From the UHGV virus genome UHGV-1366123: DNA of 64,000 nt, one strand, 5' to 3'. Shown here in pieces: positions 11,608 through 48,712 of the stretch. Under the pieces are notes generated by a model. It was not told the origin of the DNA, did not search any database, and saw only the letters and a program-made list of their open reading frames with translations. This DNA is from a virus. Numbering within the stretch: position 1 is the first letter of the stretch; each line of letters starts with the position of its first letter. The position numbers and the translations under genes were made by a program.

Positions 11608-11705
11608 GTCTCCGAACTCAAGGAAGGTACTTTCCTTGCACTCTGATGGTATTGGTGGTACTTACATAGCATCGAAGGCAAGAAAGCCCAAGGAAAAGGC
11701 AAAGA

Positions 11706-11750
11706 GAAAGCCCAACAACTTCTATCAAGTTGTTGGGCTTTCTCGTTATT
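11706..11750. terminator. Bidirectional terminator hairpin between convergent genes (14-bp stem)
   Basis: GAAAGCCCAACAAC/GTTGTTGGGCTTTC. Confidence 0.6.
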
Positions 11751-13127: not shown

Positions 13128-13588
13128 CTCTTCTCACCCTTGAATTCGCTCTTGGGAATCTGTTCGATTATGGTCGACATTGCGATATCGGTCGTACCGT
13201 TATAACCTTTACGGAAGTATGAGAACTTTCGACGATGAACGTACATGTTCGACATAGAATCGACCCTATAAAGTCTCCAGCCCGATTCGGCAGACCATTC
13301 ACGTCTCCCACGTCTTCCAGATTTTGAAACAGATCGAATCTTCACTTTTCCTCGGAGGTTATCTTCTTTGTCTGTCGATGCCACCATCCACGCACGGAGA
13401 TATTGACGAATCTTGCCGTCGACAACTGAATAACCATAACAATAGGGTTCTACAAATCTGGGACCTGGGAGCACACCGTCGTCATCTCGAGAATAGTAGA
13501 ATTGTACGTAGTATCTTTGCCGTATAGCAGATTGTAGAACACTTCCGTTTATCTCTCCAATCCCCTCAAAGATCTTCAATTTCTTCAT
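13124..13588 (-). CDS. WYL-domain-like protein (stand-alone, no HTH)
   Basis: Blocks R-R-YYV-F-Y ... PRFVEPYCYGYS ... YLRAWMVAS ... WRLYRVDSMSNM fit the WYL-domain conserved pattern. Confidence 0.45.
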   Translation of the reverse strand: MKKLKIFEGIGEINGSVLQSAIRQRYYVQFYYSRDDDGVLPGPRFVEPYCYGYSVVDGKIRQYLRAWMVASTDKEDNLRGKVKIRSVSKSGRRGRREWSAESGWRLYRVDSMSNMYVHRRKFSYFRKGYNGTTDIAMSTIIEQIPKSEFKGEKR

Positions 13589-13604
13589 ACCTGTCGAATA
13601 TACA

Positions 13605-13616
13605 TTTCGTTATTTA
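13605..13616 (-). promoter_or_regulatory. Putative late promoter TAAATAACGAAA (minus strand, drives WYL-like gene)
   Basis: recurring 12-mer, 16 nt upstream of ATG. Confidence 0.5.
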
Positions 13617-13650
13617 CAAATGTTTCCGAAATACGGTCAGAACGAAACTC

Positions 13651-13662
13651 TAAATAACGAAA
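13651..13662 (+). promoter_or_regulatory. Putative late promoter TAAATAACGAAA (divergent partner, drives 13672 gene)
   Basis: recurring 12-mer 9 nt upstream of ATG. Confidence 0.5.
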
Positions 13663-13671
13663 CTCGTTCTG

Positions 13672-15252
13672 ATGAATATCAAGAAACTATACGACAATAT
13701 AGCCGACGGCAATCTTACAACAGGTATTGTCGATGATCTCTTATGGAAAGATGCAGAGAGGATCAAGACTGGGAAAGACAGACCACAAGACCTTGATTCA
13801 CTGCTGGAGATGTACTCAAAGTGGTATCTTTCGAAGAAATCACTGATCAGAATCGAAGATCCAACATTCCTCTCTTTTAAGATAATCATCGATTGGACAT
13901 CACCACTTTTTAGGAACAACGACAAGCGTGTTCAAGTGAGGAAAGAGAAAATGGGAGGTGGTGAAAGTCTGTCGTATTACTTAGAATCGGTAAACCAGAC
14001 TTGGAGAAAGGAAAAACTTCTGAGTTTCCAAGGAAAGATGCGAGAACTGATGACCAATCGATTCCACTACATGAAGTCAATGGATGGTCTTGGAAGTTTT
14101 TGGAAGATACAGCCAAAAGTCGCATTTCTCCCACAAGAGATAACGATTAGCACGATAGAATCGATGGACATGTTCATATCTTCGATGGCAGATGACTATC
14201 TTCATGCAACGTACGACTATCAGAACATGAAGAATGTTGCACCGATCAATCTTCGACGGTTTGATATGATTATTGTTATCCACGAAGTCAGAAATATAAA
14301 GTCGCTCCTCTCTAACTATTTCAATAATGATGAGAAGTACAAGAAGACAATGGAAGAACATGGCGGTGAATCTGAGAGATTCATAAAAGACAAAGATGGG
14401 ATGGTCTTCCTCAATCCTTACCTCGGAACTCATGCCTACAAGTTCACAGATTGTGAGTTCGACTTTTCAGAAACTTTCTCCTATCTTTCCAGTGTCTCCA
14501 ATGAAGGAGGTAAAGAAGTGTCCACAAAGTTCAAGATATCGCTTGGTCGTATGGACTTCAGATATCACGACCTTGATGTCTTCTCAGAATCGGCAAGAAA
14601 GAAGAGATTCCTTGAGGAAGTAGAACCACACGTTTATCAGAGATCAGACAAACAATCTGAAATCTCGAGAGAGGTCAGAAGATTTACCGTCGGTGGAGAA
14701 AAATCTTCATCTTCGGGGATTGGTGATATTCTCAAGAAGGTAGCAATTGAAGAAGCTCGCAAAACATCAGAAGCTATTACAAGAGCAATTGATAATCAGA
14801 TCAAGGGGACTGTTTCACATGCAACAAAAGCTCTGAAGAAGAAGCTTGATGAACTTGAGACCGAGTTCAGACCTTCCAACGTTGCAGGAAGATTCGCAAA
14901 CAAACAAGCAAAGAAAGCAGGTGACTCGGCAAAACGTGCAATCGATAAAGTAGAATCGGGAGCAGATACCGCAATTTCGAAGTTGAAGGCTTTTATGGGT
15001 GACACAGGTAGTGCAGGGAATGATAGTGAACAAGGTGGGCAGATCATCAAGAGCCATAACGATCAGTTCGGCACATCAAAGGAAGAGACTGCAAAAGCAC
15101 TGAAGTCGATAAAGGAGAGTTCCGAATTCGAATTCCCAAGACACCAAGAAGATGATACTCGTGAACAGCTCCGTGAAATAATAACCGAGAATAAATCGAA
15201 GTTTGAATATGTTCGATCTGTTCTTGAAGAATCGATGAGACAAAATGGATAA
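13672..15252 (+). CDS. hypothetical late protein with C-terminal coiled-coil
   Basis: late-promoter motif upstream; KAxxxA heptad-like region. Confidence 0.5.
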   Translation: MNIKKLYDNIADGNLTTGIVDDLLWKDAERIKTGKDRPQDLDSLLEMYSKWYLSKKSLIRIEDPTFLSFKIIIDWTSPLFRNNDKRVQVRKEKMGGGESLSYYLESVNQTWRKEKLLSFQGKMRELMTNRFHYMKSMDGLGSFWKIQPKVAFLPQEITISTIESMDMFISSMADDYLHATYDYQNMKNVAPINLRRFDMIIVIHEVRNIKSLLSNYFNNDEKYKKTMEEHGGESERFIKDKDGMVFLNPYLGTHAYKFTDCEFDFSETFSYLSSVSNEGGKEVSTKFKISLGRMDFRYHDLDVFSESARKKRFLEEVEPHVYQRSDKQSEISREVRRFTVGGEKSSSSGIGDILKKVAIEEARKTSEAITRAIDNQIKGTVSHATKALKKKLDELETEFRPSNVAGRFANKQAKKAGDSAKRAIDKVESGADTAISKLKAFMGDTGSAGNDSEQGGQIIKSHNDQFGTSKEETAKALKSIKESSEFEFPRHQEDDTREQLREIITENKSKFEYVRSVLEESMRQNG

Positions 15253-16883: not shown

Positions 16884-17360
16884 ATGCTTCAAAATCCTAA
16901 TCCGAATAACGTCAGAGGTTATAAACAAGGTTACTACATTCCAATCAATAAGGACAAGTTTGTTGGTCATTTGAATAAAGAAGGTGTTCCGTACAGATCA
17001 TCTTTGGAACTCAAGTTCATGAGACTTATTGATTCGAATCCGAATGTAGAAAAGTGGACATACGAACACCCCGACACAAAGATCTCATATTTCGATCCAA
17101 TGATGCAAAAACAGAGGACTTATTACCCAGATTTTTGGATGCAGATGAGAGTGAAGGGAGAACTTAAAACGTTCCTCATAGAAGTAAAACCCTACTCTCA
17201 AACCCAGATTCCGAAGAAATCTACAAGGAAATCGAAATCGACATATAGTAGAGAACTACAGACAAATCTGAATGTTGAAGTAAAGAGAAGATCTGCAGAA
17301 AAGTTCTGTGCAGAGAGAGGTTGGAAATATCTCTTTGTGACAGAGAAGTTCTTCAAGTGA
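16884..17360 (+). CDS. Head completion protein (T4 gp4-like, nuclease-like fold)
   Basis: SSLELKFMRLIDSNPNVEKW ... YYPDF ... LIEVKP ... AEKFCAERGW aligns block-for-block with T4 gp4. Confidence 0.65.
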   Translation: MLQNPNPNNVRGYKQGYYIPINKDKFVGHLNKEGVPYRSSLELKFMRLIDSNPNVEKWTYEHPDTKISYFDPMMQKQRTYYPDFWMQMRVKGELKTFLIEVKPYSQTQIPKKSTRKSKSTYSRELQTNLNVEVKRRSAEKFCAERGWKYLFVTEKFFK

Positions 17361-17386
17361 AGGATACCTCTTCTGATTAAAGAGAG

Positions 17387-17470
17387 GTACTTTCCTTGAG
17401 CTTGGAGGTACTTGGAGGTACTTTCACCCCACCGATAATTCTCGAATGCAAGGAAAGTACCTCTCTTTAA
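17387..17470. repeat. MITE-like hairpin element, 22-bp perfect TIRs TTAAAGAGAGGTACTTTCCTTG / CAAGGAAAGTACCTCTCTTTAA
   Basis: seen in sequence; family recurs at 10 or more loci. Confidence 0.7.
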
Positions 17471-17527
17471 TTCGACAAACCAGAATAACTTCGAAGGTTG
17501 ATCTAAAGACAATCCCGATATACAGAA

Positions 17528-17563
17528 AAGGCGACAACTCTCTAAATCGAGTTGTCGCCTTTT
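17528..17563. terminator. Bidirectional terminator (13-bp stem AAGGCGACAACTC/GAGTTGTCGCCTT plus U-tracts on both strands)
   Basis: seen in sequence. Confidence 0.65.
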
Positions 17564-17708
17564 CAACAACAAAAAGTGGTATCACATACGATGTTGTCCC
17601 TCATTGATTCGAACAAAGACTAACAGAGCCAAGGTCTGTTGTGCTACCATTACACCAAAGGACAATTCGAATGTCCCTCCGCCGTCTACTACGTTCAAGG
17701 GACTGATG

Positions 17709-17783
17709 GGTGATGGATGGGACTTGAACCCACAACCAATAGAACCACAACCTATTGCTCTAACCAATTTGAGCTACCATCAC
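17709..17783 (-). tRNA. tRNA-His (anticodon GTG)
   Basis: Hand fold: acceptor GTGATGG/CCATCAC, D stem GCTC/GAGC, anticodon stem ATAGG/TCTAT, loop TTGTGGT, T arm GTGGG-TTCAAGT-CCCAT. Confidence 0.7.
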
Positions 17784-17871
17784 AGACGTAGTGAGAGGTT
17801 TCGCTCCTCTGAATATCTTCATCAAGAAGCACTACGTTTGATAAAAAGGTGGCGAGTTGTCCATACTCTTC

Positions 17872-17944
17872 TCAGTCTGGTAGGATTCGAACCTACATCA
17901 TCTAAGAACCACCTTATAGGAATTTCCGATTATTCTACAGACTG
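17872..17944 (-). tRNA. tRNA-like sequence with canonical acceptor, D and T arms but a non-canonical anticodon arm (probable pseudo-tRNA)
   Basis: T arm GTAGG-TTCGAAT-CCTAC, acceptor CAGTCTG/CAGACTG, D stem GAAT/ATTC; no 5-bp stem with 7-nt loop can be drawn in the anticodon region. Confidence 0.4.
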
Positions 17945-18310
17945 AACAACAAACGATAATGAAGATTCAAAATGCTGAATATCTGCAAATCGGAAACTAT
18001 GATTGATTCATCTTTTAGACAGCTATGGACAATACCGAATGGGGTATCAAACCAGTAACTTGAAGATTTTTATAGATTGCTGTAAGTCCATAATCTAAAA
18101 GACGTTTTTTCTATCTTTTTCGTCGAAATCTTTACTGCAGACGTTATCTATGAGCCAATTATGAAGATTCTGTTTGCTGTGTGTCTACAGATCCCGACAT
18201 TAAGAATTCTTTAAAAGAACGCTTTGTGAATGATGACTTCCCAGTGGACTACGTAGTTTTAGGAGCAATTGCATAGTAATTTGCTGTGAATCCAATAGAT
18301 CATCATTTTG

Positions 18311-18395
18311 AGGAAGAACAGGGATTCGAACCCTGGGAACCTTGCAGTTCAACGGTTTTCAAGACCGTCGCAATCGACCACTCTGCCACTCTTCC
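18311..18395 (-). tRNA. tRNA-Ser (anticodon TGA), class II with long variable arm
   Basis: Hand fold: acceptor GGAAGAG/TTCTTCC, anticodon stem ACGGT/ACCGT, loop CTTGAAA, long variable arm, T arm AGGG-TTCGAAT-CCCT. Confidence 0.7.
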
Positions 18396-18740
18396 AATAT
18401 TGAGAAAACGATGGAAATCAGACTTACACTATAATCCCGAAACGTCACGATCTCGATCATCCAACCCCGTGGAAATCAGTACCACTTAGAGATTTAGCTT
18501 TAGAAAGTTGGACGACTTTCATCGATTTTCTCAAGCACCTTTTTTGTTGACAACCAGCAACTTAGGAGATAACACCCATTAGAGCAATGACCTTCCCATA
18601 TTCATAGGTCTTCTCTGGATAGAGTTGATGTTCAATATTGCGATGCCTTCTCAAAATCCCAACCCTATGAAAGACTTCTCAAAGACAACCGTTGTATATC
18701 GTTTCAAACGGTACTAAGTCGCTTTTTCTTTTTATTTTTG

Positions 18741-18810
18741 CGAAGAGAAGAGGGATCGAACCTCTCTGATCTTTATGGCTAGATCATCAGACCTTTTTCT
18801 GAATCTCTTC
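18741..18810 (-). tRNA. Atypical tRNA-like: canonical acceptor, D and T arms but an 8-nt anticodon loop AGCCATAA (contains CAU) on a 6-bp stem and a 1-nt variable region
   Basis: Acceptor GAAGAGA/TCTCTTC, T arm AGAGG-TTCGATC-CCTCT; anticodon arm TGATCT-AGCCATAA-AGATCA. Confidence 0.4.
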
Positions 18811-18853
18811 ATAAGTCTTATTATTTGATCTTCTTATCGGTTTCGTTTCTTTT

Positions 18854-19321
18854 TTATGTCCGTACAATATAAGCATCATAACCATACTGCAAACCATCAA
18901 AATAAGAGCTTATGTATTCATAACAACCTCGTAATGTTAGATATGCGTAATAGTCTGATCTTGAATTGTAGTTGCCATTTTGATAGCTATAACAAGCATT
19001 GGAGAAGTTGCTTATAAGCCGTTCCAATTTGGCAATGGTTTCATCAACCTCTTCAGACGACTTCCAACGTAAGTGACTTAGTTTCACTCCTATAATGAAA
19101 TCATCGATTTCTCGTTGATTTCTTTTTATCGTGAGCTTAAACTCATAGGGGCTGTCATAAGGATCGTCTTTGATATGTTCACGTGTCTTTGTTGTTGTTA
19201 TTTCAACTTCAAACATCGGTTCTCCATCGTAATATATCGTCTGTACAGATTGGAATATCTTGATGTTTGTCTTGTACACACCTCTATCAAGACCTTCATA
19301 AAACTCTGTAGGGCTAATCAT
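18854..19321 (-). CDS. hypothetical protein
   Basis: ORF only; Tyr-rich C-terminus. Confidence 0.45.
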   Translation of the reverse strand: MISPTEFYEGLDRGVYKTNIKIFQSVQTIYYDGEPMFEVEITTTKTREHIKDDPYDSPYEFKLTIKRNQREIDDFIIGVKLSHLRWKSSEEVDETIAKLERLISNFSNACYSYQNGNYNSRSDYYAYLTLRGCYEYISSYFDGLQYGYDAYIVRT

Positions 19322-19340
19322 TGATCTCTGTTTGATCAGT

Positions 19341-20294
19341 TCATTTAGTCGTAGTTTGTTTCTTCTTGATGATCATTCTAAAATAAGTCTGCTCGCCATT
19401 CACAGACAAATATTTCCCGTCGTTTCCCCTTCTGGATGTCACAATCTCAAATTGTTGAGGATTGAATTTATACAAGAATGTTATCGGAACCCCCATGCAA
19501 CCATTGTAATCTCGTGGTATATCCTTGACCCTATCGACATTTATACCATCATAATTGTCGTATTTGGGATATTCATGTTCGTGTCCATAGTAGTTTTTTG
19601 TAAGCGGAATATCTTCATGTCGCATAGAGTGGTTCAAATTCGTAAACCACAGACAATTATTGGTGGGCGTGATCATATTACCAGATTCGTCCATCCATGT
19701 TTTTTTCATGTAGGGTTCATAATGGGCTGGTATGATAAACCCAGAAAATTCGTTCCCACGATTTACACCAAGCCATGCCTTACCATCTTGAACGGATTTG
19801 AAGATTTCTTTGTTGGTGATAGAATTGATATTCCCAATAATGAGAAAGAGCTTATCGTATCTGATCAGTTGTGTCATATATTCACGGAACAACGAAAATG
19901 GTGGATTTGTAACAACTATGTCAGATTGTTCCAGCAAATCGATACTTTCTTGACTACGAAAGTCGCCATCACCATTGAAGTAAACAACATCAGCTGTCTT
20001 TGGATCTGTATCGACGAGTTCTGTCCCTGTGTATTCAAAGAAAAAACCACGACTGTTTTCCTTATAACAAGATGCAATCACCTTCCGAAGTCCCAATTCT
20101 TTGAAATTGGAAACGAAGTATTTGAAAAAGTTACTCGTCAGAGGATCATCACAATTGCAATACACAACTTTCCCTTTAAAATGGCTTTCATAATGTCGCA
20201 ATTCTCTTTCGATATCAATAAGTTGCGTATAGAACTCGTCGTTCTTTTGCTTTCTAGCATTACGAAGTAACTTGCTGGTTGTTGCCCTTGCCAT
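19341..20294 (-). CDS. N6-adenine DNA methyltransferase, EcoRI-methylase family (orphan)
   Basis: N-terminus MARATTSKLL..KNDEFYTQ..VVYCNCDDP..SNFFKYF..LGL.K.IASCY closely parallels M.EcoRI; motif IV IVVTNPPF present; no restriction enzyme gene adjacent. Confidence 0.8.
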   Translation of the reverse strand: MARATTSKLLRNARKQKNDEFYTQLIDIERELRHYESHFKGKVVYCNCDDPLTSNFFKYFVSNFKELGLRKVIASCYKENSRGFFFEYTGTELVDTDPKTADVVYFNGDGDFRSQESIDLLEQSDIVVTNPPFSLFREYMTQLIRYDKLFLIIGNINSITNKEIFKSVQDGKAWLGVNRGNEFSGFIIPAHYEPYMKKTWMDESGNMITPTNNCLWFTNLNHSMRHEDIPLTKNYYGHEHEYPKYDNYDGINVDRVKDIPRDYNGCMGVPITFLYKFNPQQFEIVTSRRGNDGKYLSVNGEQTYFRMIIKKKQTTTK

Positions 20295-20419
20295 ATTTCC
20301 GTCTTTTAATATAAATCTTCAGAATAGAGAATCGTCTTATCTTTTACATCTTCTATTTGATCAGCTTCTTTAGCTATCTTACAAACTTCATACCTATCAA
20401 CAAATATCACTTTAGAAGT

Positions 20420-20595
20420 GTAGAAGCCTTATCGTATGTGAAAAATCTGCGTTTTATCCAGTTCTCACTTCTTGTTTCAACCTGCCATTACTTTTTAGGA
20501 ACACGAGGTTCGGTCATCCATAAGAGGGCAGTCCGCAAGCGTAAATTCGGTGCTACGAACACCTACTCGATTTTTTATATGTTAGACAGTTTGAA
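20420..20595 (-). ncRNA. Putative TnpB omega-RNA (reRNA) scaffold region at and beyond the 3' end of tnpB
   Basis: Inferred from IS200/IS605 biology; locally GC-rich, structured segment (GGAACACGAGGTTCGGTCATCC...GGTGCTACGAACACC) immediately 3' of the tnpB stop. Confidence 0.35.
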
Positions 20596-21724
20596 GTTTT
20601 CTTTGTCCTTCAATGAGAATGTTCTTCGAAGCGTTTATATCTCTGTCGTGATATTCACCACATTCGGGACAAGTCCAAAACCTATCACCGAGTTTCAAGT
20701 CTTTCTTCTTGTAACCACAACATAAACAAGTCTTTGAACTTGGATAGAACCTATTGATAAGAACAACTCGCTTATCATTCATAAGAGCCTTATATTGCAA
20801 TATCGACTTGAACCGATAAAATCCAGACTCTTGGATAGCATTCGCAAGATAACGATTTCCAAGCATCCCTTTAATATTCAAGTCTTCCATGAACACCACG
20901 TCGTATGATTTGAGGATCTCGTTCACAACTGAGTGGATGTAGTTCTCTTTCTTGTTCGTTATATTCGCAATCACTTTTGCAAGTCTGATTCTCTGTTTGT
21001 TCCTATTGTTTGAACCTTTGACCTTTCTGGATAGTTGACGATGAAGTCTTGTGATCTTCTTTTCCTCCTTCTTGAAGAAGTGTTTGTTTTCAAACACAAA
21101 TCCATCAGAGGTTATGACGAAATCTTTCACACCAAGATCAATACCGACTTGCTTGTTGGTCTTTTCAAACTTTACAAATTCTGCTTCGGGAATGTCGATA
21201 AGGATTGATAAGAAGAAATTCCCACTCTTGGTTTTCGAGAGAGTTGCACTTCTTATGTTATCTTTGTACTTCTGTAAGCGTTTGTGATACAAGTCAGAAC
21301 AACGGAATCTGAGTTTTTGAAGAGAAGTGATTAGTGTTATATGTTTCGTTTCGAAAGTGTTCCTCTTTGAAATAGCATTACGAGGAAACAATGCTGATTG
21401 TTTGTCTTTCTTTGATTTAAACTTTGGAAAGCCTTTATGATGATTGAAGAAGTTTTGATAAGCACCGACCATCTGTTTGATTGCTTGGTTCATCACCTTT
21501 GTGTTCTGTTCTCTCAACCAAGCATATTGTTCATCTTTCAACAATGATCCGTGGAAATATTTCGATAGATCGCTTTCGCTTAGGTTTGTCTTGTCCGTTT
21601 CATAAGCCTTTTGTTTTCTATCGAGCATGTGATTATAGACAAAACGATAAGCACCAAGAACCTTGTTGAGTTCTTGTTCCTGCGCTTTGTTTGGATATAA
21701 CCTTATTTTAATCGCTCTAAACAT
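20582..21724 (-). mobile_element. tnpB: TnpB (IS200/IS605 OrfB-family RNA-guided nuclease), intact, no tnpA present
   Basis: N-terminal IRLYPNKAQ..YRFVYNH; RuvC-I GIDLGVKD, RuvC-II FMEDLNIKGM, zinc finger CLCCG...CPECG, RuvC-III DRDINASKNIL; all catalytic residues present. Confidence 0.8.
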
Positions 21725-21743
21725 GCCTATGATTGATTATCCA

Positions 21744-21968
21744 TTACAGATCTTTTTCTTCTGCTAATATCCTATCGAATTCCAATCTCAGACAGCGAAG
21801 ATAGCCGTTCATGTATTCATACTTAGTCTGCTGGAAGAACTTCTCATCTGGTGTCAACTTCTCAAACTCTAAAGATTGGATGAAATCGAGTTGCTTCAAA
21901 GTGACTTCTTTGAACCTTTCATAGCTCTTTAAAGCTTTCCGTCTCCTCTGTCCAAATTCTTCAAACAT
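21744..21968 (-). CDS. hypothetical protein
   Basis: ORF only. Confidence 0.4.
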   Translation of the reverse strand: MFEEFGQRRRKALKSYERFKEVTLKQLDFIQSLEFEKLTPDEKFFQQTKYEYMNGYLRCLRLEFDRILAEEKDL

Positions 21969-21974
21969 AACCTA

Positions 21975-22187
21975 TTAATCATTAGAGATTTTTGTAACAG
22001 CACCGAACTTCTTCAACTTTTCTGCAAGATCAAGGACATCTTGATCGTTCTCTGATTCATATAGAACTGGTTCATTCTGACGGACAAGTTCCATGGCATA
22101 ACTCAAAGAAATCTTTCGATAATCCATCAAGCACTTTATAACTTGAAGAGGTGCTTGACCTTTGTCTATGAGAATCAGCTTATACAT
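21975..22187 (-). CDS. Ribosomal protein bL12 (L7/L12) C-terminal-domain-like protein, stand-alone 70 aa
   Basis: LILIDKGQAPLQVIKCLMDYRKISLSYAMELVRQNEPVLYESENDQDVLDLAEKLKKFGAVTKI aligns with the bL12 CTD (..[47 protein letters not shown]). Confidence 0.6.
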   Translation of the reverse strand: MYKLILIDKGQAPLQVIKCLMDYRKISLSYAMELVRQNEPVLYESENDQDVLDLAEKLKKFGAVTKISND

Positions 22188-22212
22188 TTTGCTTGTTTTT
22201 ATTTTTAAAAAG

Positions 22213-22279
22213 TGCTTCGTGAAGGATTCGAACCTTCATCAATTCCGTCGAATCGCTCTGGCCATTGAGCTAACGAAGC
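22213..22279 (-). tRNA. Short (67-nt) tRNA-like element: perfect acceptor, D and T arms, anticodon arm collapsed (pseudo-tRNA)
   Basis: Acceptor GCTTCGT/ACGAAGC, D arm GCTC-AATGGCCA-GAGC, T arm GAAGG-TTCGAAT-CCTTC; only 17 nt between D and T arms. Confidence 0.35.
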
Positions 22280-22481
22280 CCTCATAGATTCCCAGTTTTA
22301 ACGGAAACTGTGGCGGACTATGAACCCCTGCGTGAAACCGCACTTGAACTTCAACCAAGATCTGTACGTACTTTAACCCAAGTGATAGGTTTTGAACCCT
22401 AATTGAAGCAGAACTATTCCCATTCTGAGAGGGGACGTTATCAACTTAAAAATTGGTGAAACGTCCTAAAGTCAACATCGG

Positions 22482-22554
22482 TACGCCATGAAGGATTTGA
22501 ACCTTCGACCGCCAAGGTATAAGCTTGGAACTCTAACCACTGAGTTAATGGCGC
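22482..22554 (-). tRNA. tRNA-Ile (anticodon TAT, decodes AUA)
   Basis: Acceptor GCGCCAT/ATGGCGT, D arm ACTC-AGTGGTT-AGAGT, anticodon stem CCAAG/CTTGG, loop CTTATAC, T arm GAAGG-TTCAAAT-CCTTC. Confidence 0.65.
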
Positions 22555-22589
22555 ATTTTCATCTTTCTATTTTCTTATTGATGGATCTT

Positions 22590-23135
22590 TTAGAACGTTT
22601 TACTGTATCCAAAAACGTCGGAAAGATCTCTCAGAGAATCATTCATAAGTATCTCGTGGACATTGTTGTAAACCGTACCAAGAAGATTCGATCCTCTCCA
22701 TTTCGATTTATCAACTATACGAATATCAGTTTCAGAAAGTCCACATCCCCAGATTTTGTCATAAGGACTGGCTTCTACAAACTCATAACCTTCATTAATT
22801 AGTTGTGTGTAGTGATCTCTGATTTTCTTTGAAGATCTTAGTTTCATCAGTACCACAAAGAGCATCACATCATATCTGACAGATGACCAACGACCATCAT
22901 TGTAGTTTCGAACAAGTCTTCCAAGCTCTTTACAAAAACGTGGGTTATCAGAATTCTTGAGGATCTGCATTGCGATATCTTCGTCTCCGAAGTACTTTGC
23001 TTTCAAGAACATGAACAATGATTCACCGCAATGGAAAACAAGACCATTATAGTTGATCTCGGATTTATAGAAGTTGCTGTAAAAATCCGAACCAGTGAAG
23101 AAAGTCACCAATTTATGATCTTTGAAAATCTTCAT
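22590..23135 (-). CDS. NADAR-domain protein (YbiA/DUF1768 family; ADP-ribose N-glycosidase-like)
   Basis: FFTGSDFYSNFY ... GESLFMFLKAKYF ... RWSSVRYDVMLFVVLMKLRS ... LINEGYEFVEASPYDKIWGCG matches YbiA blocks (F-SNF, SEHYFQAQKF, W..V...VM...L..KF, LL.T....LVE.S..D..WG.G). Confidence 0.75.
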   Translation of the reverse strand: MKIFKDHKLVTFFTGSDFYSNFYKSEINYNGLVFHCGESLFMFLKAKYFGDEDIAMQILKNSDNPRFCKELGRLVRNYNDGRWSSVRYDVMLFVVLMKLRSSKKIRDHYTQLINEGYEFVEASPYDKIWGCGLSETDIRIVDKSKWRGSNLLGTVYNNVHEILMNDSLRDLSDVFGYSKTF

Positions 23136-23157
23136 CGTGTCTCTTGTTCTTTTTTTG

Positions 23158-23230
23158 TGATTCCAGTGGGGCTTGAACCCACAACCCCTGCATTAAAAGT
23201 GCAGTGCTCTACCTGTTGAGCTATGAAATC
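23158..23230 (-). tRNA. tRNA-Lys (anticodon TTT)
   Basis: Acceptor GATTTCA/TGGAATC, D arm GCTC-AACAGGTA-GAGC, anticodon stem CTGCA/TGCAG, loop CTTTTAA, T arm GTGGG-TTCAAGC-CCCAC. Confidence 0.7.
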
Positions 23231-23370
23231 TAAACCATTGTTCTAAGCGAATCTCTTCAAGTGAATGATTAATCGCTTCGGTATTCTTATTGTGAATGTC
23301 AAGATATTAGTTTCAATGATAGTTACCAACAGCTATTGGAGATTATCAACAAATATTAGCAGTTCCCATG

Positions 23371-23446
23371 CCAAGAAGACCCCCCCCCGATGAATTGATT
23401 CTTTTTTATCAAAAAGAATCAATTCATCGGGGGGGGGTCTTCTTGG
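23371..23446. repeat. 76-bp perfect palindrome: 36-bp stem (CCAAGAAGA-C9-GATGAATTGATTCTTTTT) around a TATC loop, with C9/G9 homopolymer tracts
   Basis: seen in sequence; every position pairs. Confidence 0.9.
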
Positions 23447-23464
23447 AGATTATCGTTTATGGGT

Positions 23465-23520
23465 GAAGATTGAAGATTGAAGATTGAAGATTGAAGATTG
23501 AAGATTGAAGATTGGCTTCC
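23465..23520. repeat. Microsatellite (GAAGATT)x8
   Basis: seen in sequence. Confidence 0.95.
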
Positions 23521-23573
23521 GCATATTGAAGAAATGTGTTAAAGTGTATTATCAACTGATACGCTTTAAAGGA

Positions 23574-23657
23574 AGGTATTTTCCTTGCGCTCTGAGAGGT
23601 TCAAGAATATGAAAATAGCGGAGAATAGATCAGAGCGCAAGGAAAGTACCAAGGAAA
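23574..23657. repeat. MITE-like hairpin element copy (TIRs GGAAGGTATTTTCCTTGCGCTCTGA / TCAGAGCGCAAGGAAAGTACC; loop carries GAAAATAGCGGAG core)
   Basis: seen in sequence. Confidence 0.7.
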
Positions 23658-24060
23658 GCCAAGGAGACATATCCTTTGGAATGATGGGTTTCTGTCGGGA
23701 GACAATGACTATTTCCAAGGATTATGAGAAGACTATGACAATAATGGAGGACAATGGAAGATTATCAATGACTTGAAAGACAATGGTTGGAAAATGACTG
23801 ATTTTTAGAGGATTATCAGAGGACTATCTTTTGGAAAATGGTTGGTGATTATCGAATTAAAGGAAGGTACTTTCCTTGTCCTCGAAGCTATTCGAGAATA
23901 TGAAAATAGCGGAGACCATACTCGAGTTCAAGGAAAGTACCAAGGAAATCCAAGGAGACATATTTTCGAGGATTATGGTCTCTGTGGCTAATGGGAGGAA
24001 TATCTTGGAAAGAGAATATCAGTTTAAAGGTGTTAAAAGGTGTTAATCTGTTCGGGGATT
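23640..24060. repeat. Left iteron array: GACAATG / TGACAAT / GACTATGACAAT repeats (reverse complement of the right arrays)
   Basis: seen in sequence. Confidence 0.7.
23867..23941. repeat. MITE-like hairpin element copy
   Basis: TTAAAGGAAGGTACTTTCCTTG ... CAAGGAAAGTACC; loop GAGAATATGAAAATAGCGGAGACCATACTCGAG. Confidence 0.7.
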
Positions 24061-24070
24061 TAGTGAAGGT

Positions 24071-24170
24071 CTTTTTTAAAGTTTTACGCATGCGTTTTTT
24101 AAAGTTTTACGTGCGTGCGCTTTTTTTTGGAGTTTCACGCATGCGTTTTTTAAAGTTTCGCAACACGCAC
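24071..24170. repeat. Four tandem ~25-bp repeats TTTTTTAAAGTTTTACGCATGCG (each with a GCATGC or GCGTGC palindromic core); a fifth variant lies at 24376-24405
   Basis: seen in sequence. Confidence 0.85.
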
Positions 24171-24236
24171 CTGGTACTTTTGGTTTAAACTGGAGATTTA
24201 AAAACATGCGCACGACATGTTTCTGCGCTCAATGTA

Positions 24237-24289
24237 TGGTTTGGGGCAGCCTGGCTTGGCACTATCGTGCCAAGGCTGACCCCAAACCA
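24237..24289. repeat. Imperfect 26-bp palindrome TGGTTTGGGGCAGCCTGGCTTGGCAC-TATC-GTGCCAAGGCTGACCCCAAACCA, same TATC centre as the 36-bp palindrome
   Basis: seen in sequence. Confidence 0.8.
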
Positions 24290-24420
24290 GTTGTAAATAC
24301 TTTGTATTTACGATAAAACTGGAAAAAAATAACGCATGCGTATACGGGTATACACGGGAATTCGCGCGTTTTTTCAAAGTTTCGTGTATACGCACGGTTT
24401 GTCGGCAAATTCCGAGATTA

Positions 24421-24720
24421 GTCTGATTATCTTTCAATTTCAGTCTTTCAATTTTCAACTTTCCATTCAAAATCAGTTAACAATTCTTAACAATTCTCTG
24501 TTCTTGGAATGATTATCTTTCAATTTCAATCTTTCAATCTCTCTTTGAATAATCATCCATTGTCTTTCCAAGAATCATAGTCTTTCCAAGAATCATAAAT
24601 ATCTCGGGAATCATCAATGGTCTCTTTCAATTGTTCTGGTCTGTTCTGGGATTAAAAAGACTAATTTTGATTTTCAACTTTCCCTTTCCACAATAAAACC
24701 ATTTAGTGATTGTCTTTTGT
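24421..24720. repeat. AT-rich block of short direct repeats (TCTTTCAAT, TTCAATTTCA, TCTTTCCAAGAATCATA x2)
   Basis: seen in sequence. Confidence 0.7.
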
Positions 24721-24839
24721 CTTCAAAACGATTATCATTAAAGGGGCGGAAATCTATGATTCAGACAAAAGTCATCTTCTATTAACAAATCTTTAGAGAA
24801 TTCTTTCAATCTTTAGAGAAATTTTTCAAAGAGACTATG

Positions 24840-25017
24840 ACTTTTTCTATTGTCTTTGATAATCTTTTCACGATCCTCTATTGTCTTGGTGATTCTTTGA
24901 TGATCAGTCATTGTCTTTGATTATGGTTGATTGTCTTCCATAGTCTTCTGATAATCACTGACAATAGTCATTGTCTTCCGACAATCATACCACCATTCAA
25001 CAGAATACCTCTTCTGA
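24840..25017. repeat. Right iteron array 1: (A/C)(G)TCATTGTCTT(T/C) and GATTGTCTT repeats
   Basis: seen in sequence; three segmental copies follow. Confidence 0.75.
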
Positions 25018-25112
25018 TTACAGGAAGGTACTTTCCTTGCGCTCTGATCCATTTTCCGCTATTTCTATCCCACCGAATGTCTTCGAGGACAAGGAAAGTA
25101 CCTTCCTTTAAT
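25018..25112. repeat. MITE-like hairpin element copy with its loop inverted relative to the 23574 and 23867 copies
   Basis: TTACAGGAAGGTACTTTCCTTGCGCTCTGA ... TTCCGCTATTTC ... CAAGGAAAGTACCTTCCTTTAA. Confidence 0.7.
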
Positions 25113-25159
25113 TCAACCATTCTCAACCATTTTCTGGTAGATCATCTTCATAATCATTC

Positions 25160-25356
25160 AAAGAACCAGTTGTGAAGACGGTCATCATTGTCTTTCCATA
25201 ATCCTTTGATGGTCAGTCATTGTCTTTGATTGTTTTCCATAGTCAGTCATTGTCTTTGATTATGGTCGATTGTCTTTCCATAGTCTTCTCATAATCCTTC
25301 GAAATAGTCATTGTCTCCCGACAGAAACCCATAATCCTCGAGAATATGTCTCCTGA
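25160..25356. repeat. Right iteron array 2 (GTCATTGTCTTTGAT / GATTGTCTTTCCATAGTC units)
   Basis: seen in sequence. Confidence 0.75.
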
Positions 25357-25450
25357 TTACAGGAAGGTACTTTCCTTGAACTCGAGTATGGTCTCCGCTA
25401 TTTTCATATTCTTGAATATCTCAGAGCGCAAGGAAAGTACCTCGTCTTAA
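25357..25450. repeat. MITE-like hairpin element copy; loop is the inverted form of the 23867 copy
   Basis: loop AACTCGAGTATGGTCTCCGCTATTTTCATATTCT is the reverse complement of the 23867-copy loop. Confidence 0.7.
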
Positions 25451-25454
25451 TTAA

Positions 25455-25695
25455 TGAATCAGAACTATTGTCTCTTCATAGTCTTCTGATAATACTTCAA
25501 TAATCGTCCATTGTCTTTCAATAATCAGCCATTGTCTTCCGATTATGGTCGATTGTCTTTGATGATTGTTGATTGTCTTTGATGATTGTTGATTGTCTTC
25601 CATAATCAGTCATTATCTTGGATAGTCTTCCATAATCCTTCGAAATGGTCTATTGTCTTCGGATGATGACCCATAGTCCCCGAGAATACCTCTCC
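25455..25695. repeat. Right iteron array 3, including GATGATTGTTGATTGTCTTT x2
   Basis: seen in sequence. Confidence 0.75.
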
Positions 25696-25699
25696 TTGG

Positions 25700-25792
25700 C
25701 TCTCCTTGGTACTTTCCTTGCATTCTGATACACTTTCCGCTATTTTCATATTCTCGGGCTATTTCGAGGACAAGGAAAGTACCTCTCTTTAA
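25700..25792. repeat. MITE-like hairpin element copy
   Basis: CCTTGGTACTTTCCTTGCATTCTGA ... CAAGGAAAGTACCTCTCTTTAA. Confidence 0.65.
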
Positions 25793-25927
25793 TTCACAAC
25801 TCTGTGACCATTTCTCCAGCCAATTTTCTGATTATTGCTGGAAGGTCAATGTTTGGATACAGATGTGGGGAGAAGAAATCAAACTTCTCCCCACATTCTT
25901 CTTTTTGATTTGTAGGTTTCTTTTCTT

Positions 25928-27577
25928 TTAGTGAATGGTTCTTCTTTTAAGGAAACTTTCGTTGATTTCTCTGAAAAGTGATCTTGATTTCTTGTCCAAG
26001 TTCAATGGATCACGACAATCGTCGATTATGAAGAACTTCGAAGGTGTCTTCACAAGGGATTTCGACATGATGTAAGAATGATAAGTTTCATCAACTTCGT
26101 GATTTGCGACACGGATCTGTCGAATTGCGTATTTCCCAGTGATAAGTGAAACCTGTCCATCAATCTCCAAAACAGATGATCTTTCTCTATAAAGAAGTTT
26201 CATGACCTTCTCCAATGGTTCTGTATGATTAAGCAAACTCTTGAGAATTGTTGAATCGTTATCATTTACAGAGTAAACGTTGAACCTCATGAATCCGTGC
26301 TCATTGTTGATCCCTACGACAACACAATAGAACTTTCTCTTCTCAAGATCAACGTTCAAAGAGAATGAATATTCACCACTGACGACTATGTTCTTTGTCG
26401 ATATAGAAATTGAGAATGGTTTCCCATCAACTTCGATCACCTTCGAAAGACTCTCGTCGAGAAGTTCTATCCAGAACATGAATGACAATCCCTGCTTTGA
26501 GGAAACTCTCTGTTGATACTTGATAGCTGTTTCTCCAGTTTTCCCTACTGACATGTCGTAGATGAACTTCCCAAGTGAATTTCCATTGTTATCATAGTCA
26601 CATCTTTCAGATTTTACAAGACTTGGATCGAACTCTGAGTGCAAGAGATCATCGATACCTACGTTGTCCAGATTTTGTTTCGTGTTCTGTATGTCTTCCA
26701 TTTCGTCCAGCTGTTCATCTGAATAGTCGTCGATTTTCACGTTTTCTTTTAAAAACTGGAGATCATCGTCTCTTTTGTCGACATTCGTCATGTCCTCATA
26801 CTTCTTGATTGTACAGACATAGAAGCTTCCATGTTCACCTATCCCATGATTCAGATAAACGTCTTGGATCATGTACATTCTGTTAATCTCTGAGAAGTAA
26901 AGGTAGTCCATTCTTCTTGGTTCTTCTCGGACACCAAACACTTCTTCGAAATAGGTCTTCTCAAAGTAAACTTCCAGTTTTTCAAACTCGATCCCCCATT
27001 GTGAAAATTCGTGCCGAGGTTCTGGGATCTGGTTGTCTTTCAAGACAACTTTGAGAATCTTCATCGCCACAACATTGTGCAACGAATATTCTCTTAAGAA
27101 TTCATCTTTGGACTTCAAATCTGGATTTGTGTGCCAATACTTAACACTCACCGCTGAATGTTGCTGGATGTAATAGTTCATGTCGATCTCCAGCTTCTGA
27201 AGACCTATCGACATTCGAGCATAATCTTGAAGAGAATCCACACCAGACAGCAGGAACGATTCTCCTTGATCTATAAAAGTCGTCTGTGGAGATTTGTACT
27301 TAATAAGTGGCTTCTCGATCTCTATTTTTGATCCTAAGAAGTTCTCCACGAGGACATATCTGACTTTGATGTATTTTCCGTGGATTCCAACAAGAGAATC
27401 TCTGTTATACGCTTTCCACGTATCCCAATTTTTCCCATCGGAAGATGTTGTATAATCTCGAAGAAGCAAGGAAGATGAGTTTTCACCTTCCACTTTCTCC
27501 ATGACATATTCGATCTCTCTTGCGGATTTCTCTATATCGAATATAGCAACAGAACCTACGGTCTCCAGTTTTTTCAT
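25928..27577 (-). CDS. hypothetical large protein (possible structural protein)
   Basis: Long ORF; start placed at the internal Met (MKKLETVG...) to avoid overlap with the convergent phosphoesterase gene. Confidence 0.45.
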   Translation of the reverse strand: MKKLETVGSVAIFDIEKSAREIEYVMEKVEGENSSSLLLRDYTTSSDGKNWDTWKAYNRDSLVGIHGKYIKVRYVLVENFLGSKIEIEKPLIKYKSPQTTFIDQGESFLLSGVDSLQDYARMSIGLQKLEIDMNYYIQQHSAVSVKYWHTNPDLKSKDEFLREYSLHNVVAMKILKVVLKDNQIPEPRHEFSQWGIEFEKLEVYFEKTYFEEVFGVREEPRRMDYLYFSEINRMYMIQDVYLNHGIGEHGSFYVCTIKKYEDMTNVDKRDDDLQFLKENVKIDDYSDEQLDEMEDIQNTKQNLDNVGIDDLLHSEFDPSLVKSERCDYDNNGNSLGKFIYDMSVGKTGETAIKYQQRVSSKQGLSFMFWIELLDESLSKVIEVDGKPFSISISTKNIVVSGEYSFSLNVDLEKRKFYCVVVGINNEHGFMRFNVYSVNDNDSTILKSLLNHTEPLEKVMKLLYRERSSVLEIDGQVSLITGKYAIRQIRVANHEVDETYHSYIMSKSLVKTPSKFFIIDDCRDPLNLDKKSRSLFREINESFLKRRTIH

Positions 27578-27673
27578 ACTTTTTAAAGAAACGTTTTGTT
27601 GTTTATCTTCTATAAGACGTTGCAGATGGTGCATAAAGCCGAAAGATTTACAATAAACAACGATTAGGTAAAA

Positions 27674-28399
27674 ATGAAGATTCTCATAATTGGTGACGTT
27701 CACGAAAGCGACTTCTGGATAGACCACGTTCAAAAAAACAAAGATCGTGTCGAGAAGATCGTTTTCATGGGGGACTATTTCGATTCATTCAAGAAAGTCT
27801 CTGCGCAGGTGGCTTTCGAGAACTTTAAGAAGATCCTCGCTCTTCGTCAGACTTTAGGAGAAGAGAAGGTCATCCTCCTTATTGGCAACCACGACTTCCA
27901 TTATACAAAGTTCTGTATGGGAAGATATAGCGGATTTTCAACCACGACTTTTGTCCTTGTAGGGAGCTTCCTTGATGAACTGGTTGATAATGGAACTTTG
28001 GTTCTCTCCTATGAATCTGGCGGTTATCTTTTCTCTCATGCTGGGGTCTCCGAGACTTGGTTTAAGGAGATGACTGGTGAAGATTCAAGTGTCGAAGATA
28101 TCAACCCATTGTTCAAGCAATCTCCAAGAATCGTCGAATTCCGAAATGATGAACGAACCACGTCGCAATATGGCGACAACGAGCATCAGTCTCCGATTTG
28201 GATTCGACCAAATGCTCTCTCAGAGAATCCTTACGGAGATTATCATCAAATAGTTGGTCATACTGCTTTCGATTTCTCGAATATCGATTCTAATCGTGTG
28301 ACTATGGACAATGGTAAGAACCTCTATTTCACAGATTCTAATCAACACGAAGCATTCATCTTGGATACCGAGACTGGAGAGTGTGAAATCCTAAGATAA
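27674..28399 (+). CDS. Calcineurin-like metallophosphoesterase (Ser/Thr phosphatase-like)
   Basis: GDVHE, GDYFD, GNHD and GHTAF metal-binding motifs in canonical order. Confidence 0.7.
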   Translation: MKILIIGDVHESDFWIDHVQKNKDRVEKIVFMGDYFDSFKKVSAQVAFENFKKILALRQTLGEEKVILLIGNHDFHYTKFCMGRYSGFSTTTFVLVGSFLDELVDNGTLVLSYESGGYLFSHAGVSETWFKEMTGEDSSVEDINPLFKQSPRIVEFRNDERTTSQYGDNEHQSPIWIRPNALSENPYGDYHQIVGHTAFDFSNIDSNRVTMDNGKNLYFTDSNQHEAFILDTETGECEILR

Positions 28400-28417
28400 A
28401 ACAATAATCCGAACACA

Positions 28418-28470
28418 GATTGGGCGTAACAACTTTCTATTTTTGTTGTTACGCCCAATCTTTATTTTTA
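28418..28470. terminator. Bidirectional terminator (16-bp stem GATTGGGCGTAACAAC/GTTGTTACGCCCAATC plus T-tract)
   Basis: seen in sequence between convergent genes. Confidence 0.75.
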
Positions 28471-29064
28471 ATCGATAAACTCGTAATTGTCGGGATTGTT
28501 CACAATGTAGCAACCTACATCAATGTAGTAAAACTCACCACCACTTTTTATAACGTTTGATTCTCGAACGTCATCTATTAAGTAATAACCATCAAAGTAG
28601 ATGTTTCGAGAATAACCAGTTTCTTTGTTTTTACATGGTCTAAAACCTCTCTTGCGAAGATCTCTTCTTATTTCTTCTTCTGTAGCATCAACACCTTCGA
28701 TGAACTTCTGAGTGGTCATAAAGTAACTGCTGTCGTTCTCGATTATGCAGAAAGCTATCGGTGTTATCTTACTCTCGGGGAAAACTTTGTTATAAGTTTT
28801 AAGAGATCTGCACCAGAAATCAGCGTTTACTTCATAGTCGCAAGATACACCAAGAAGTCTTGTGGATGTGCTTTTGACAACCTTGTCTCCGTCGATATGC
28901 TTCCAAACGAAACTTTCACCACCTGTGTTTAATGGTTGCATAATGTCACCATCAATCACCGAAGCGAGTATTTCGTCATAGATATCAACATCATAGCCAC
29001 AATCAATAACCCTTGTGAAATCTGATCTCCAACTTTCAAAGATTGGTTTTATTAGGCGGTTCAT
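28468..29064 (-). CDS. hypothetical protein, possibly an atypical kinase-like fold
   Basis: YYLIDDVRESNVI ... YYIDVG resembles a catalytic-loop and DFG-like arrangement; weak. Confidence 0.3.
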   Translation of the reverse strand: MNRLIKPIFESWRSDFTRVIDCGYDVDIYDEILASVIDGDIMQPLNTGGESFVWKHIDGDKVVKSTSTRLLGVSCDYEVNADFWCRSLKTYNKVFPESKITPIAFCIIENDSSYFMTTQKFIEGVDATEEEIRRDLRKRGFRPCKNKETGYSRNIYFDGYYLIDDVRESNVIKSGGEFYYIDVGCYIVNNPDNYEFID

Positions 29065-35485: not shown

Positions 35486-35582
35486 ATAAACAGGTTCATA
35501 GTAAATAACTGTTTATAGATTCGTTGCGTATCTACAGAATATAAGAAAGTAGGTACGCAACGATATCTGTTTAAATGACAAT

Positions 35583-38497: not shown

Positions 38498-38551
38498 GAA
38501 AACCGATTGGGGTCATCTGATGCTATTTTCAGATGACCCCAATCGGTTTTC
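38498..38551. terminator. Bidirectional terminator (22-bp stem GAAAACCGATTGGGGTCATCTGA/TCAGATGACCCCAATCGGTTTTC)
   Basis: seen in sequence between convergent genes. Confidence 0.75.
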
Positions 38552-48612: not shown

Positions 48613-48623
48613 AAAAGATAACC

Positions 48624-48699: not shown

Positions 48700-48712
48700 G
48701 TCTATCAACGAG

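Follow-up and report, generated by a model that had tools for sequence, protein, structure and literature searches.

Is the 8.5 kb between two blocks of core genes in a T4-like phage genome a single accessory module, or does it combine parts with separate histories? The question is raised by UHGV-1366123, from which we analyzed a stretch of 64,000 nt (the window, to which all coordinates refer unless prefixed by an L-number). The region in question belongs to a phage of ~150 kb and has the gp4 head-completion gene on one side and a neck-protein gene on the other. An earlier note, made from the letters of the window, had described it as an accessory island of minus-strand polarity that unites tRNA genes, an orphan methylase, a lone TnpB, a bL12 C-terminal domain (CTD) and a NADAR protein with a repeat locus, and had taken this combination for a module that had not been described before. 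Our comparison with relatives makes it likely that the region has two unlike halves, a hyperplastic region of independent cassettes on the left and a conserved non-coding locus of repeats and a probable structured RNA on the right.

Eight close contigs from IMG/VR (L001 to L008, the source contigs including four of 149-151 kb and one of 145 kb) are 90-95% identical to the window in core and flanks, and the presence of cassettes was counted in seven comparable genomes, including the window. The relatives are collinear with the window up to ~17562-17575 and again from ~25.6 kb. Between 17.6 and 23.3 kb they form a patchwork in which cassettes have been gained, lost, swapped and reordered. Genes for tRNA-Ser(UGA) (18310-18395, minus strand), the NADAR-domain protein (22590-23135, minus strand, 181 aa) and tRNA-Lys(UUU) (23157-23230, minus strand) are present in all seven genomes; most cassettes occur in just three to six of the seven, and their order varies. 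The cassettes are joined at shared strings of 10-13 nt, e.g. AGATCAATGAT, and not at long repeats. In the stretch from 17.6 to 23.3 kb, a hot spot of recombination, accessory cassettes that are independent of one another accumulate along with tRNAs. Cassettes would be exchanged here among co-circulating relatives via recombination at very short shared sequences, and each of them most likely acts alone.

The opposite view, that the block is one co-functional module for counter-defense or host takeover whose genes are expressed and act together, draws on the location of the island genes on one strand, on their tight spacing, on the lack of both late-type and TATAAGAA-type promoter motifs within the block and on the affiliation of three of the proteins with families of known or suspected anti-defense roles (PMC11825919). 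The distribution of the cassettes speaks against it. TnpB is present in four, the methylase in five, an ORF (open reading frame) of 155 aa in three and the bL12-like gene in six of the seven genomes, and since the cassettes thus assort independently, there is no functional link among them. Furthermore, the order is swapped in L003 and L007, which also hold an extra 338-aa gene, the 155-aa cassette is found alone in other phages and TnpB breaks a resident gene. No fixed combination of cassettes recurs; a single co-functional module is without support, and we consider it quite unlikely. The claim of an undescribed module was also not borne out in another respect: the region matches the hyperplastic regions of T4-type phages (PMC2839356, PMC4122927), each protein type has already been described in phages and the parts of the island are individually known.

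The TnpB cassette allows one of these exchanges to be followed at nucleotide level. Its ORF (20582-21724, minus strand, 380 aa; 20582-21740 with a 16-nt leader) contains three Pfam domains (HTH, OrfB and zinc ribbon) and matches ISDra2 TnpB over the full length at 3e-55. Residues 3-371 align with solved TnpB-type nucleases, including the DLG, EDLN, HDRD and CxxC motifs. The nearest homologs stem from Prevotella Lak phages (50%) and from a scaffold of Prevotella sp. CAG:1092 (64%), and the protein is found in 425 phage records. In the window, L002 and L003, a cassette of 1310 nt (20431-21740) is joined to a 92-aa minus-strand gene (PHROG 839) at GAAGCCTT/ATCGTATG, leaving a 3' remnant of that gene at 20306-20430 (minus strand). 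The junction of this cassette end in L001 lies ~60 nt deeper in the 92-aa gene, at ATATGTCGT/ATCGTATG, and in the TnpB-less L005, L007 and L008 the gene is intact. Two independent TnpB right-end junctions therefore exist within one 92-aa gene. In the alleles with an empty site, the flanks of the right end mostly follow ...ATC (GAAGATC/AAGGC and CATC/ACGAC, two sites only and with a rearranged left flank); the empty site of L007 has CACC ahead of the second TnpB site.

The right end of the cassette, a putative guide-RNA (omega RNA) scaffold (20431-20581, minus strand), ends with ...ACATACGAT beside the flank. These 150 nt 3' of tnpB are conserved with compensating stem changes in L139 and L140, which encode TnpB proteins of 64-66% identity, and the similarity ends at the junction, after ...CATACGAT. 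Such a pattern would be expected of a guide-RNA scaffold with a flank-derived guide behind it. The 3' region has no Rfam match, even at lax thresholds, and its single-sequence fold is not significant. No ORF for TnpA (Y1 transposase) is found in the island, in agreement with the lone TnpB of the earlier note, and the left side has no hairpin, with just 16 nt between the boundary and the start codon. Without TnpA, with a 16-nt leader and with a truncated target, the TnpB cassette is one without its own transposase or left end. Judged by its family, TnpB would be a selfish RNA-guided nuclease cassette without transposase that is kept or spread by nuclease-driven copying or recombination; presumably it persists and spreads by cutting TnpB-free alleles in co-infection.

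How does the right part of the region compare? The locus from 23.37 to 25.9 kb is kept in every relative that reaches it. In six genomes, no reassignment of stop codons opens a long ORF in it, which rules out stop-codon recoding as the cause of the 2.5-kb ORF-free stretch. The most repeat-dense kilobases of the window are the bins 25001-26000 and 23001-24000, as had been stated before. The stretch from 23.4 to 25.9 kb is a conserved non-coding locus and not an accessory cassette: besides its retention, a paralogous locus exists elsewhere and the hairpin repeat that characterizes it is dispersed window-wide. The term accessory island, which had been applied to the whole block, is consequently to be restricted to 17.6-23.3 kb, where the alignment with relatives reveals variable content and order. 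Likewise, the minus polarity applies to all called genes between 17593 and 23230 and not to the left repeat array and the folded element, which are plus-strand features.

Two opposed hairpin arrays flank a folded element of ~230 nt in this locus. Ahead of the left array lie a perfect hairpin with 36-bp arms (23371-23446) and 7.3 copies of TGAAGAT (23464-23514). The left array (23566-23978, plus strand) consists of two units with hairpins at 23575-23650 and 23866-23941, the right array (24860-25800, minus strand) of three units of ~340 nt with hairpins at 25027-25102, 25366-25441 and 25708-25783. A sequence GCG-TTTTTT-AAAGTTTY, a mini-palindrome plus T run, is present in three to four tandem copies at 24066-24160 (plus strand) and once more at ~24362-24380. 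The repeat unit comprises a 76-nt hairpin, GGTACTTTCCTTG-N50-CAAGGAAAGTACC, followed by a conserved tail of ~90 nt and degenerate 10-nt repeats, and outer arms often lengthen the stem to 23 bp. The 14-nt hairpin core has 18 matches in the window versus 0.37 expected. Folding energies of the copies range from -37 to -49 kcal/mol (z-scores -5 to -9). In IMG/VR the repeat is confined to the clade, with several loci per genome.

Outside the locus, hairpins are located 5-16 nt past stop codons at 11.6, 17.4, 38.4 and 44.0 kb, i.e. at four of the six convergent gene junctions, and a partial copy lies at 53.1 kb, ~110 nt past a stop codon. The copy at 17376-17471, 16 nt past the gp4 stop codon, has perfect 23-bp arms around a 50-nt loop and folds at -47 to -49 kcal/mol (z about -7). 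A function as bidirectional terminator of convergent genes was ruled out: each of the four repeat-bearing junctions has its own unique perfect-stem terminator, so that the repeat is not itself the terminator. At 11.6 and 17.4 kb, the dispersed copies are found at identical positions in every relative whose sequence extends there, and the mobility of a miniature inverted-repeat transposable element or of a repetitive extragenic palindromic (REP) sequence is thus not apparent. There is no consistent target-site duplication at the repeat ends and no transposase besides TnpB, which is absent from some repeat-carrying relatives. The ideas of a CsrA-type GGA sponge and of a CRISPR-repeat mimic found no support in the repeat units. 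The hairpin most likely serves as a processing or stability element at transcript ends or as a protein-binding element.

The loops of the hairpins suggest a further possibility. Most of them carry GAATATGAAAATAGCGGA, which loosely resembles the TATAAGAA motif upstream of replication genes, and in 26 of 43 distinct copies the loop opens an exact frame of 16 codons, MKIAExxxExKEST(F/S)L. The units could therefore be genes for a 16-residue peptide with the start codon in the loop, and act as regulators of the leader-peptide or attenuator type or yield a small peptide. Along these lines, nearly all copies have a loop of exactly 50 nt, several of the differences among them fall on third positions and an A-rich stretch upstream of the ATG would suit hosts not using Shine-Dalgarno sequences. 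On the other hand, the ATG is missing in the copies at 17386, 25027 and 38398, L002:15005 has a frameshift, the nucleotides of ATGAAAATAGCGG are conserved, synonymous changes being absent, and longer readings differ in frame and length between orthologs. We regard the peptide as very doubtful. Small protein genes in the repeat units were ruled out because ORF length and frame differ between orthologous copies.

The center of the locus (24040-24416) is 90-97% identical among the relatives, compared with 70-80% for the arrays, and contains the conserved folded element (24177-24410, plus strand, ~230 nt, hairpins of RNA or DNA). A further non-coding locus of each genome, likewise with hairpin repeats and situated directly upstream of the gene for the C-terminal half of DNA polymerase, contains a second copy of 70-73% identity. 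In the consensus fold, stems enclose two hairpins, one long and one short. Its 30 pairs are paired in 99.8% of cells, with five two-sided (compensatory) and zero one-sided changes, whereas shifted controls reach 23-45%. The element has no match in Rfam, even at lax thresholds, and a pattern scan of metagenomes yielded 90 loci, with covariance-model scores only in the same phage clade. The repeat locus thus holds an undescribed conserved folded element, and this is most likely a small structured RNA. The paralogous arrangement can be inspected in L029, where 12390-13818 is a non-coding locus of 1.4 kb with the folded element and two hairpin repeats, and where L029:11188-12390 (minus strand) encodes 400 aa with a match confined to the C-terminal half of phage DNA polymerase, indicating that the polymerase is split.

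As the structure could also be one of DNA, we weighed whether the repeat locus is a site bound by phage proteins, e.g. a replication origin or a site of protein assembly. The palindromic 13-mers and phased 10-nt repeats, the repeat period of 10-21 nt, hairpin arms that are each near-palindromic around GTAC with arm centers 64 bp apart, a GC content down to 0.318 at 24500-24999, the paralogous locus in a divergent intergenic region directly upstream of the DNA-polymerase gene and the fact that the supported pairs of the folded element are all Watson-Crick are in line with such a site. However, at least five further intergenic sites past stop codons have the hairpin repeat as well, the center of the locus has been lost in L008, there is no evident initiator gene and there is no skew switch apart from that of gene orientation. 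A DNA-level site is accordingly unlikely in our view. Equally speculative, and in our estimation improbable, is an extension in the direction of RNA: the repeat locus and its polymerase-side paralog would constitute a new class of structured RNA that, together with the mini-ORF hairpin arrays and two anticodon-less tRNA-like genes of the island, forms an RNA-based system for takeover or counter-defense, e.g. by acting in Bacteroidota as decoys or sponges of host factors that target RNA or associate with ribosomes.

The abundance of repeats also raises the question of whether the region is an assembly artifact or a repeat-made chimera. The contigs of L004, L005, L006 and L007 do end at, inside or next to hairpin repeats, and the repeats therefore break short-read assemblies. 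The same architecture is nevertheless present in independent assemblies from different samples and three contigs of 149-150 kb span the whole region, so that an artifact is extremely unlikely.

Among the proteins of the left part, NADAR is clearly assigned (PF08719 at 1e-31, 110.8 bits versus a cut-off of 35.1). The catalytic Glu and Lys of PnNADAR (8bau) are matched in the alignment by E38 and K45, which have the same 7-residue spacing as E36 and K43 of T4 AdfN (PMC11825919). AdfN (gp30.3) of T4 is an anti-DarTG1 NADAR enzyme that reverses DNA ADP-ribosylation of the DarT1 type (PMC11825919), and by family the phage enzyme may likewise strip ADP-ribose from DNA and counter DarT1-type toxins. 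The methylase (19341-20294, minus strand, in five of seven genomes) is an N6-adenine methyltransferase of the M.EcoRI family that matches EcoRI_methylase (PF13651) with E=1.7e-116 over residues 10-304 and PADLOC MTase_II at 2.9e-129. No endonuclease partner was found, and the ORFs that adjoin the methylase have no nuclease or defense match. Since no nuclease partner adjoins it and the neighboring 155-aa ORF occurs without it elsewhere, the methylase is an orphan; it may modify the phage DNA against a restriction system, as its family suggests. The assignments of methylase, TnpB and NADAR made earlier thus all find strong profile matches, and the orphan state of the methylase was recognized correctly.

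The 155-aa ORF (18854-19321, minus strand) is a mobile cassette found in three of the seven genomes. It is situated on the opposite side of the methylase in L003 and L007 and occurs as a methylase-free cassette in other T4-like phages of 94-255 kb; as it also lacks a defense match, it was ruled out as the restriction partner of the methylase. Neither this ORF nor one of 74 aa (21744-21968, minus strand, four of seven genomes) has a family match. The extra ORF of 338-341 aa in two relatives (L003:15590-16615 and L007:14622-15638, both minus strand) is absent from the window. It is an optional cassette without Pfam match between a gene for a tRNA with CAU anticodon and the bL12-like gene.

The latter (21975-22187, minus strand, 70 aa, six of seven genomes) encodes a stand-alone protein resembling the CTD of bL12 (L7/L12). 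Its AlphaFold model (predicted local distance difference test score 91.3) has the beta-alpha-alpha-beta-alpha-beta fold, superposes on the CTD of Escherichia coli L7/L12 (1ctf) with a template-modeling (TM) score of 0.87-0.89 and a root-mean-square deviation of 1.4 Å, and finds L7/L12 CTDs as best Foldseek matches (TM 0.83-0.89), with ClpS weaker (TM ~0.75). The CTD fills the entire protein, and the N-terminal dimerization and uL10-binding domain and the hinge are absent. With 70 aa that are all CTD and a sub-threshold score, the product is to be called a bL12-domain protein and not ribosomal protein bL12. The CTD assignment, weak by sequence and clear by predicted fold, holds in this form. 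The protein might present the factor-binding domain of bL12 without the part that anchors it to the ribosome. Virus-encoded bL12 domains have been reported in phages (Mizuno 2019, PMC6375957).

Seven tRNA-type genes between 17593 and 23230 exceed the Rfam gathering score, while ARAGORN calls six. The earlier count of seven tRNA or tRNA-like genes is thereby reproduced, with five canonical tRNAs that possess a 7-nt anticodon loop and two genes with an aberrant anticodon arm. tRNA-Gln(UUG) (17593-17664, minus strand) and tRNA-His(GUG) (17708-17783, minus strand) form a cassette present in three of the seven genomes, namely the window, L001 and L007. The neighboring tRNA-like gene (17871-17945, minus strand; 42.3 bits in Rfam and 'tRNA-???' in ARAGORN) has no normal anticodon due to its 6-nt anticodon loop. 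A 3'-half fragment of a tRNA (18740-18790, minus strand) lies at the site of tRNA-Tyr(GUA), which is present in five genomes and absent from the window and L005. The second tRNA-like gene (22213-22279, minus strand), which the window shares with L001 and L008, forms a cloverleaf that has a GACG tetraloop on a 5-bp stem where the anticodon arm would be, and this stem shows compensating changes in L008. tRNA-Ile(UAU) (22480-22554, minus strand) is 91.5% identical to a stretch of Prevotella Lak phage DNA. At position 22480 all six relatives have instead a tRNA with CAU anticodon, and as this is a separate gene, an origin of tRNA-Ile(UAU) by point mutation from CAU to UAU was ruled out. By family, the tRNAs may supply or replace host tRNAs.

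Several points weigh against the two-part reading of the region or parts of it. Gene functions rest on homology throughout. The 70-aa ORF scores below the Pfam cut-off (Ribosomal_L12, E=0.0016, 19.2 versus 25.9 bits), and profile searches of the PDB return solved L7/L12 chains at E-values of 0.35-0.9 only. The left side of TnpB is not a clean transposon end: the 92-aa target gene has lost its 5' part, and the 16-nt leader is similar to what precedes the intact gene in L007 and L008. Recombination and not transposition may hence have placed the cassette. As to the folded element, four of the five compensatory pairs represent one split between orthologs and paralogs and hence few independent events, and as all supported pairs are Watson-Crick, structures of RNA and DNA are not told apart. 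L008 lacks the element at the repeat locus, so that this copy is dispensable. Finally, mismatches in the hairpin stems favor neither strand. Selection at the RNA level on these stems was ruled out, since single substitutions give G.U on the sense strand about as often as mismatches.

The boundaries of the region are well defined. On the left, the gp4 homolog (16884-17360) matches PHROG 218 and has homologs in 2394 T4-like phage records. On the right, the gene at 25928-27733 encodes 601 aa whose homologs include an annotated neck protein (Tenacibaculum phage PTm1) as well as proteins of phages PAU and MaF61, which makes the boundary at 25.9 kb sound and rules out that the gene encodes the lacking N-terminal half of the split DNA polymerase. 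Core genes hence stop at the gp4-like gene and resume at ~25.9 kb, just as had been proposed. To the right of the neck gene follow genes for a calcineurin-like metallophosphatase (27674-28399, plus strand) and a Kinase-PolyVal domain protein (28468-29064, minus strand), a type of kinase that occurs in polyvalent anti-defense proteins; accessory-type genes therefore extend past 25.9 kb. A unique terminator-type hairpin (25862-25897) is located just past the 3' end of the neck-protein gene, and an intrinsic-terminator hairpin of unique sequence (17530-17564, plus strand) reads GGCGACAACT..AGTTGTCGCC followed by TTTTC. Convergent gene junctions each possess a long perfect unique-sequence hairpin between A/T runs (11700-11745, 28417-28460, 38500-38550, 43932-43975 and 48620-48700), and these look like bidirectional intrinsic terminators.

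The source is an uncultured phage of ~150 kb with replication and morphogenesis genes of the T4 type, and flanking genes have PHROG matches to prohead protease, UvsX, gp41 helicase, gp4, gp46/47, Dda and NAD ligase. Cultured phages yielded no DNA-level match to the window, whereas its clade is represented by more than 30 contigs of 145-151 kb. The major capsid protein is nearest to that of Flavobacterium phage MaF61 (39.5%), followed by Tenacibaculum, Lak and PAU phages, and Shine-Dalgarno sequences are missing from the window genes. On the basis of the affinities of capsid protein, TnpB and tRNA-Ile and of the Shine-Dalgarno-less genes, the host is probably a Prevotella-like member of the Bacteroidota.

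Across the window, a box TAAATAA(C/G)(G/C)AA is found 25-45 nt 5' of ten genes, including those for capsid and prohead protease (4304, 6313, 13616 on the minus strand, 13651, 29128, 40372, 45578 on the minus strand, 51179, 55246 and 59032). It looks like a candidate late-promoter motif of the clade, comparable to TATAAATA of T4, and does not occur inside the island. A second box, (A/T)TATAAGAA, is located ahead of genes for replication and repair (8059, 30280, 34316, 35539, 62845 and others) and is often placed directly behind a hairpin or within a hairpin loop (35520-35560), an arrangement that recalls the promoter-early stem-loop (PeSL) cassettes of T4-type phages. Two near-identical upstream regions of ~90 nt (2757-2777 and 49563-49583) contain TGGCACGATTTTTGTTATAAT, the spacing of which is like that of a sigma-54 -24/-12 element and may indicate another class of promoter. 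Sigma-70-like sites were not enriched in a promoter scan (35 found versus 28.5 +/- 5.2 expected). GAATTC is not avoided in the window (42 observed versus 33.7 expected), while GGATCC, GAGCTC and GACGTC are each absent from it versus 7-8 expected. These counts suggest restriction avoidance at some sites and methylase protection at others.

Taken as a whole, the island illustrates cleanly how cassettes turn over in nature within a clade of human-associated Bacteroidota phages whose core is of the T4 type. It also shows which anti-defense genes are being traded, with NADAR fixed in the clade and the methylase, TnpB and several tRNAs optional. The occurrence of a transposase-less TnpB/guide-RNA cassette at two positions in one phage gene renders TnpB-driven spread between co-infecting phages testable. 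If the hairpin family or the folded element were a functional RNA, this would add a new element for regulation or takeover to the phages of a host group with atypical transcription and translation signals. Experiments would be worthwhile on the hairpin family and the folded element as well as on the two tRNA-like genes without anticodon and on the insertion of TnpB at two sites.

Palindromic intergenic repeats are known from bacteria as REP sequences and bacterial interspersed mosaic elements (BIMEs), and T7 possesses hairpins that are processed by RNase III. The window shares with them a conserved family of palindromic hairpins in intergenic 3' regions near stop codons, and its stems of 13-23 bp, long and perfect, would be suited to double-strand RNA processing or to protection from exonucleases. 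In contrast, the window element, at 76-96 nt including a loop of 50 nt, is much longer, phage-borne and clade-specific and, unlike REP/BIME sequences, it is arrayed at a spacing of ~300-340 nt in one locus, with no associated transposase found. TnpB agrees with that of IS200/IS605 elements (e.g. ISDra2) in its full length, its catalytic motifs, the structured 3' region up to the element boundary and a flank at the guide position that differs between insertion sites. It differs in the lack of TnpA and of a left-end hairpin, in the loss of the 5' part of the target gene and in that it acts here as a gene cassette within the variable region of a lytic phage.

The bL12-domain protein has the same L7/L12 C-terminal fold as the virus-encoded domains reported by others (PMC6375957), with sporadic acquisition and variable genomic context in both cases, but it is devoid of the N-terminal domain and hinge and only ~25% identical to bacterial bL12. 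The cultivated examples have genomes below 80 kb (PMC6375957) as opposed to ~150 kb here. The NADAR protein, related to the solved 8bau at family level only (E=3e-15), corresponds to T4 AdfN and to the orphan NADAR of phages in being a stand-alone domain in a T4-type phage with the DarT partner absent (PMC11825919; PMC11543638).

The closest parallels to the region as a whole are the hyperplastic regions and the tRNA region of T4-type phages and their PeSL cassettes (Arbiol 2010, PMC2839356; Comeau 2014, PMC4122927). As in these regions, small non-essential genes and tRNAs reside between conserved core modules, and close relatives vary by insertion, deletion, replacement and reordering. Conserved stem-loop repeats are likewise present in genomes with PeSLs. 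The stems of the window hairpins are very stable. However, the cassette junctions of the window are 10-13-nt strings near start codons and not promoter/terminator cassettes of ~100 bp, and the hairpin repeat has no sigma-70 consensus and is mostly placed just past stop codons beside ordinary terminators, with copies that are orthologous in all relatives. PeSLs reach ~50 copies per genome upstream of ORFans, whereas the hairpin repeat has ~10 per 64 kb, and its copies bound a single variable segment, the deletion of the locus center in L008. A last correspondence concerns DNA polymerase: PeSL-like sequences have been reported at the split polymerase locus of other T4-type phages, and here it is the paralogous non-coding locus that adjoins the split polymerase gene.

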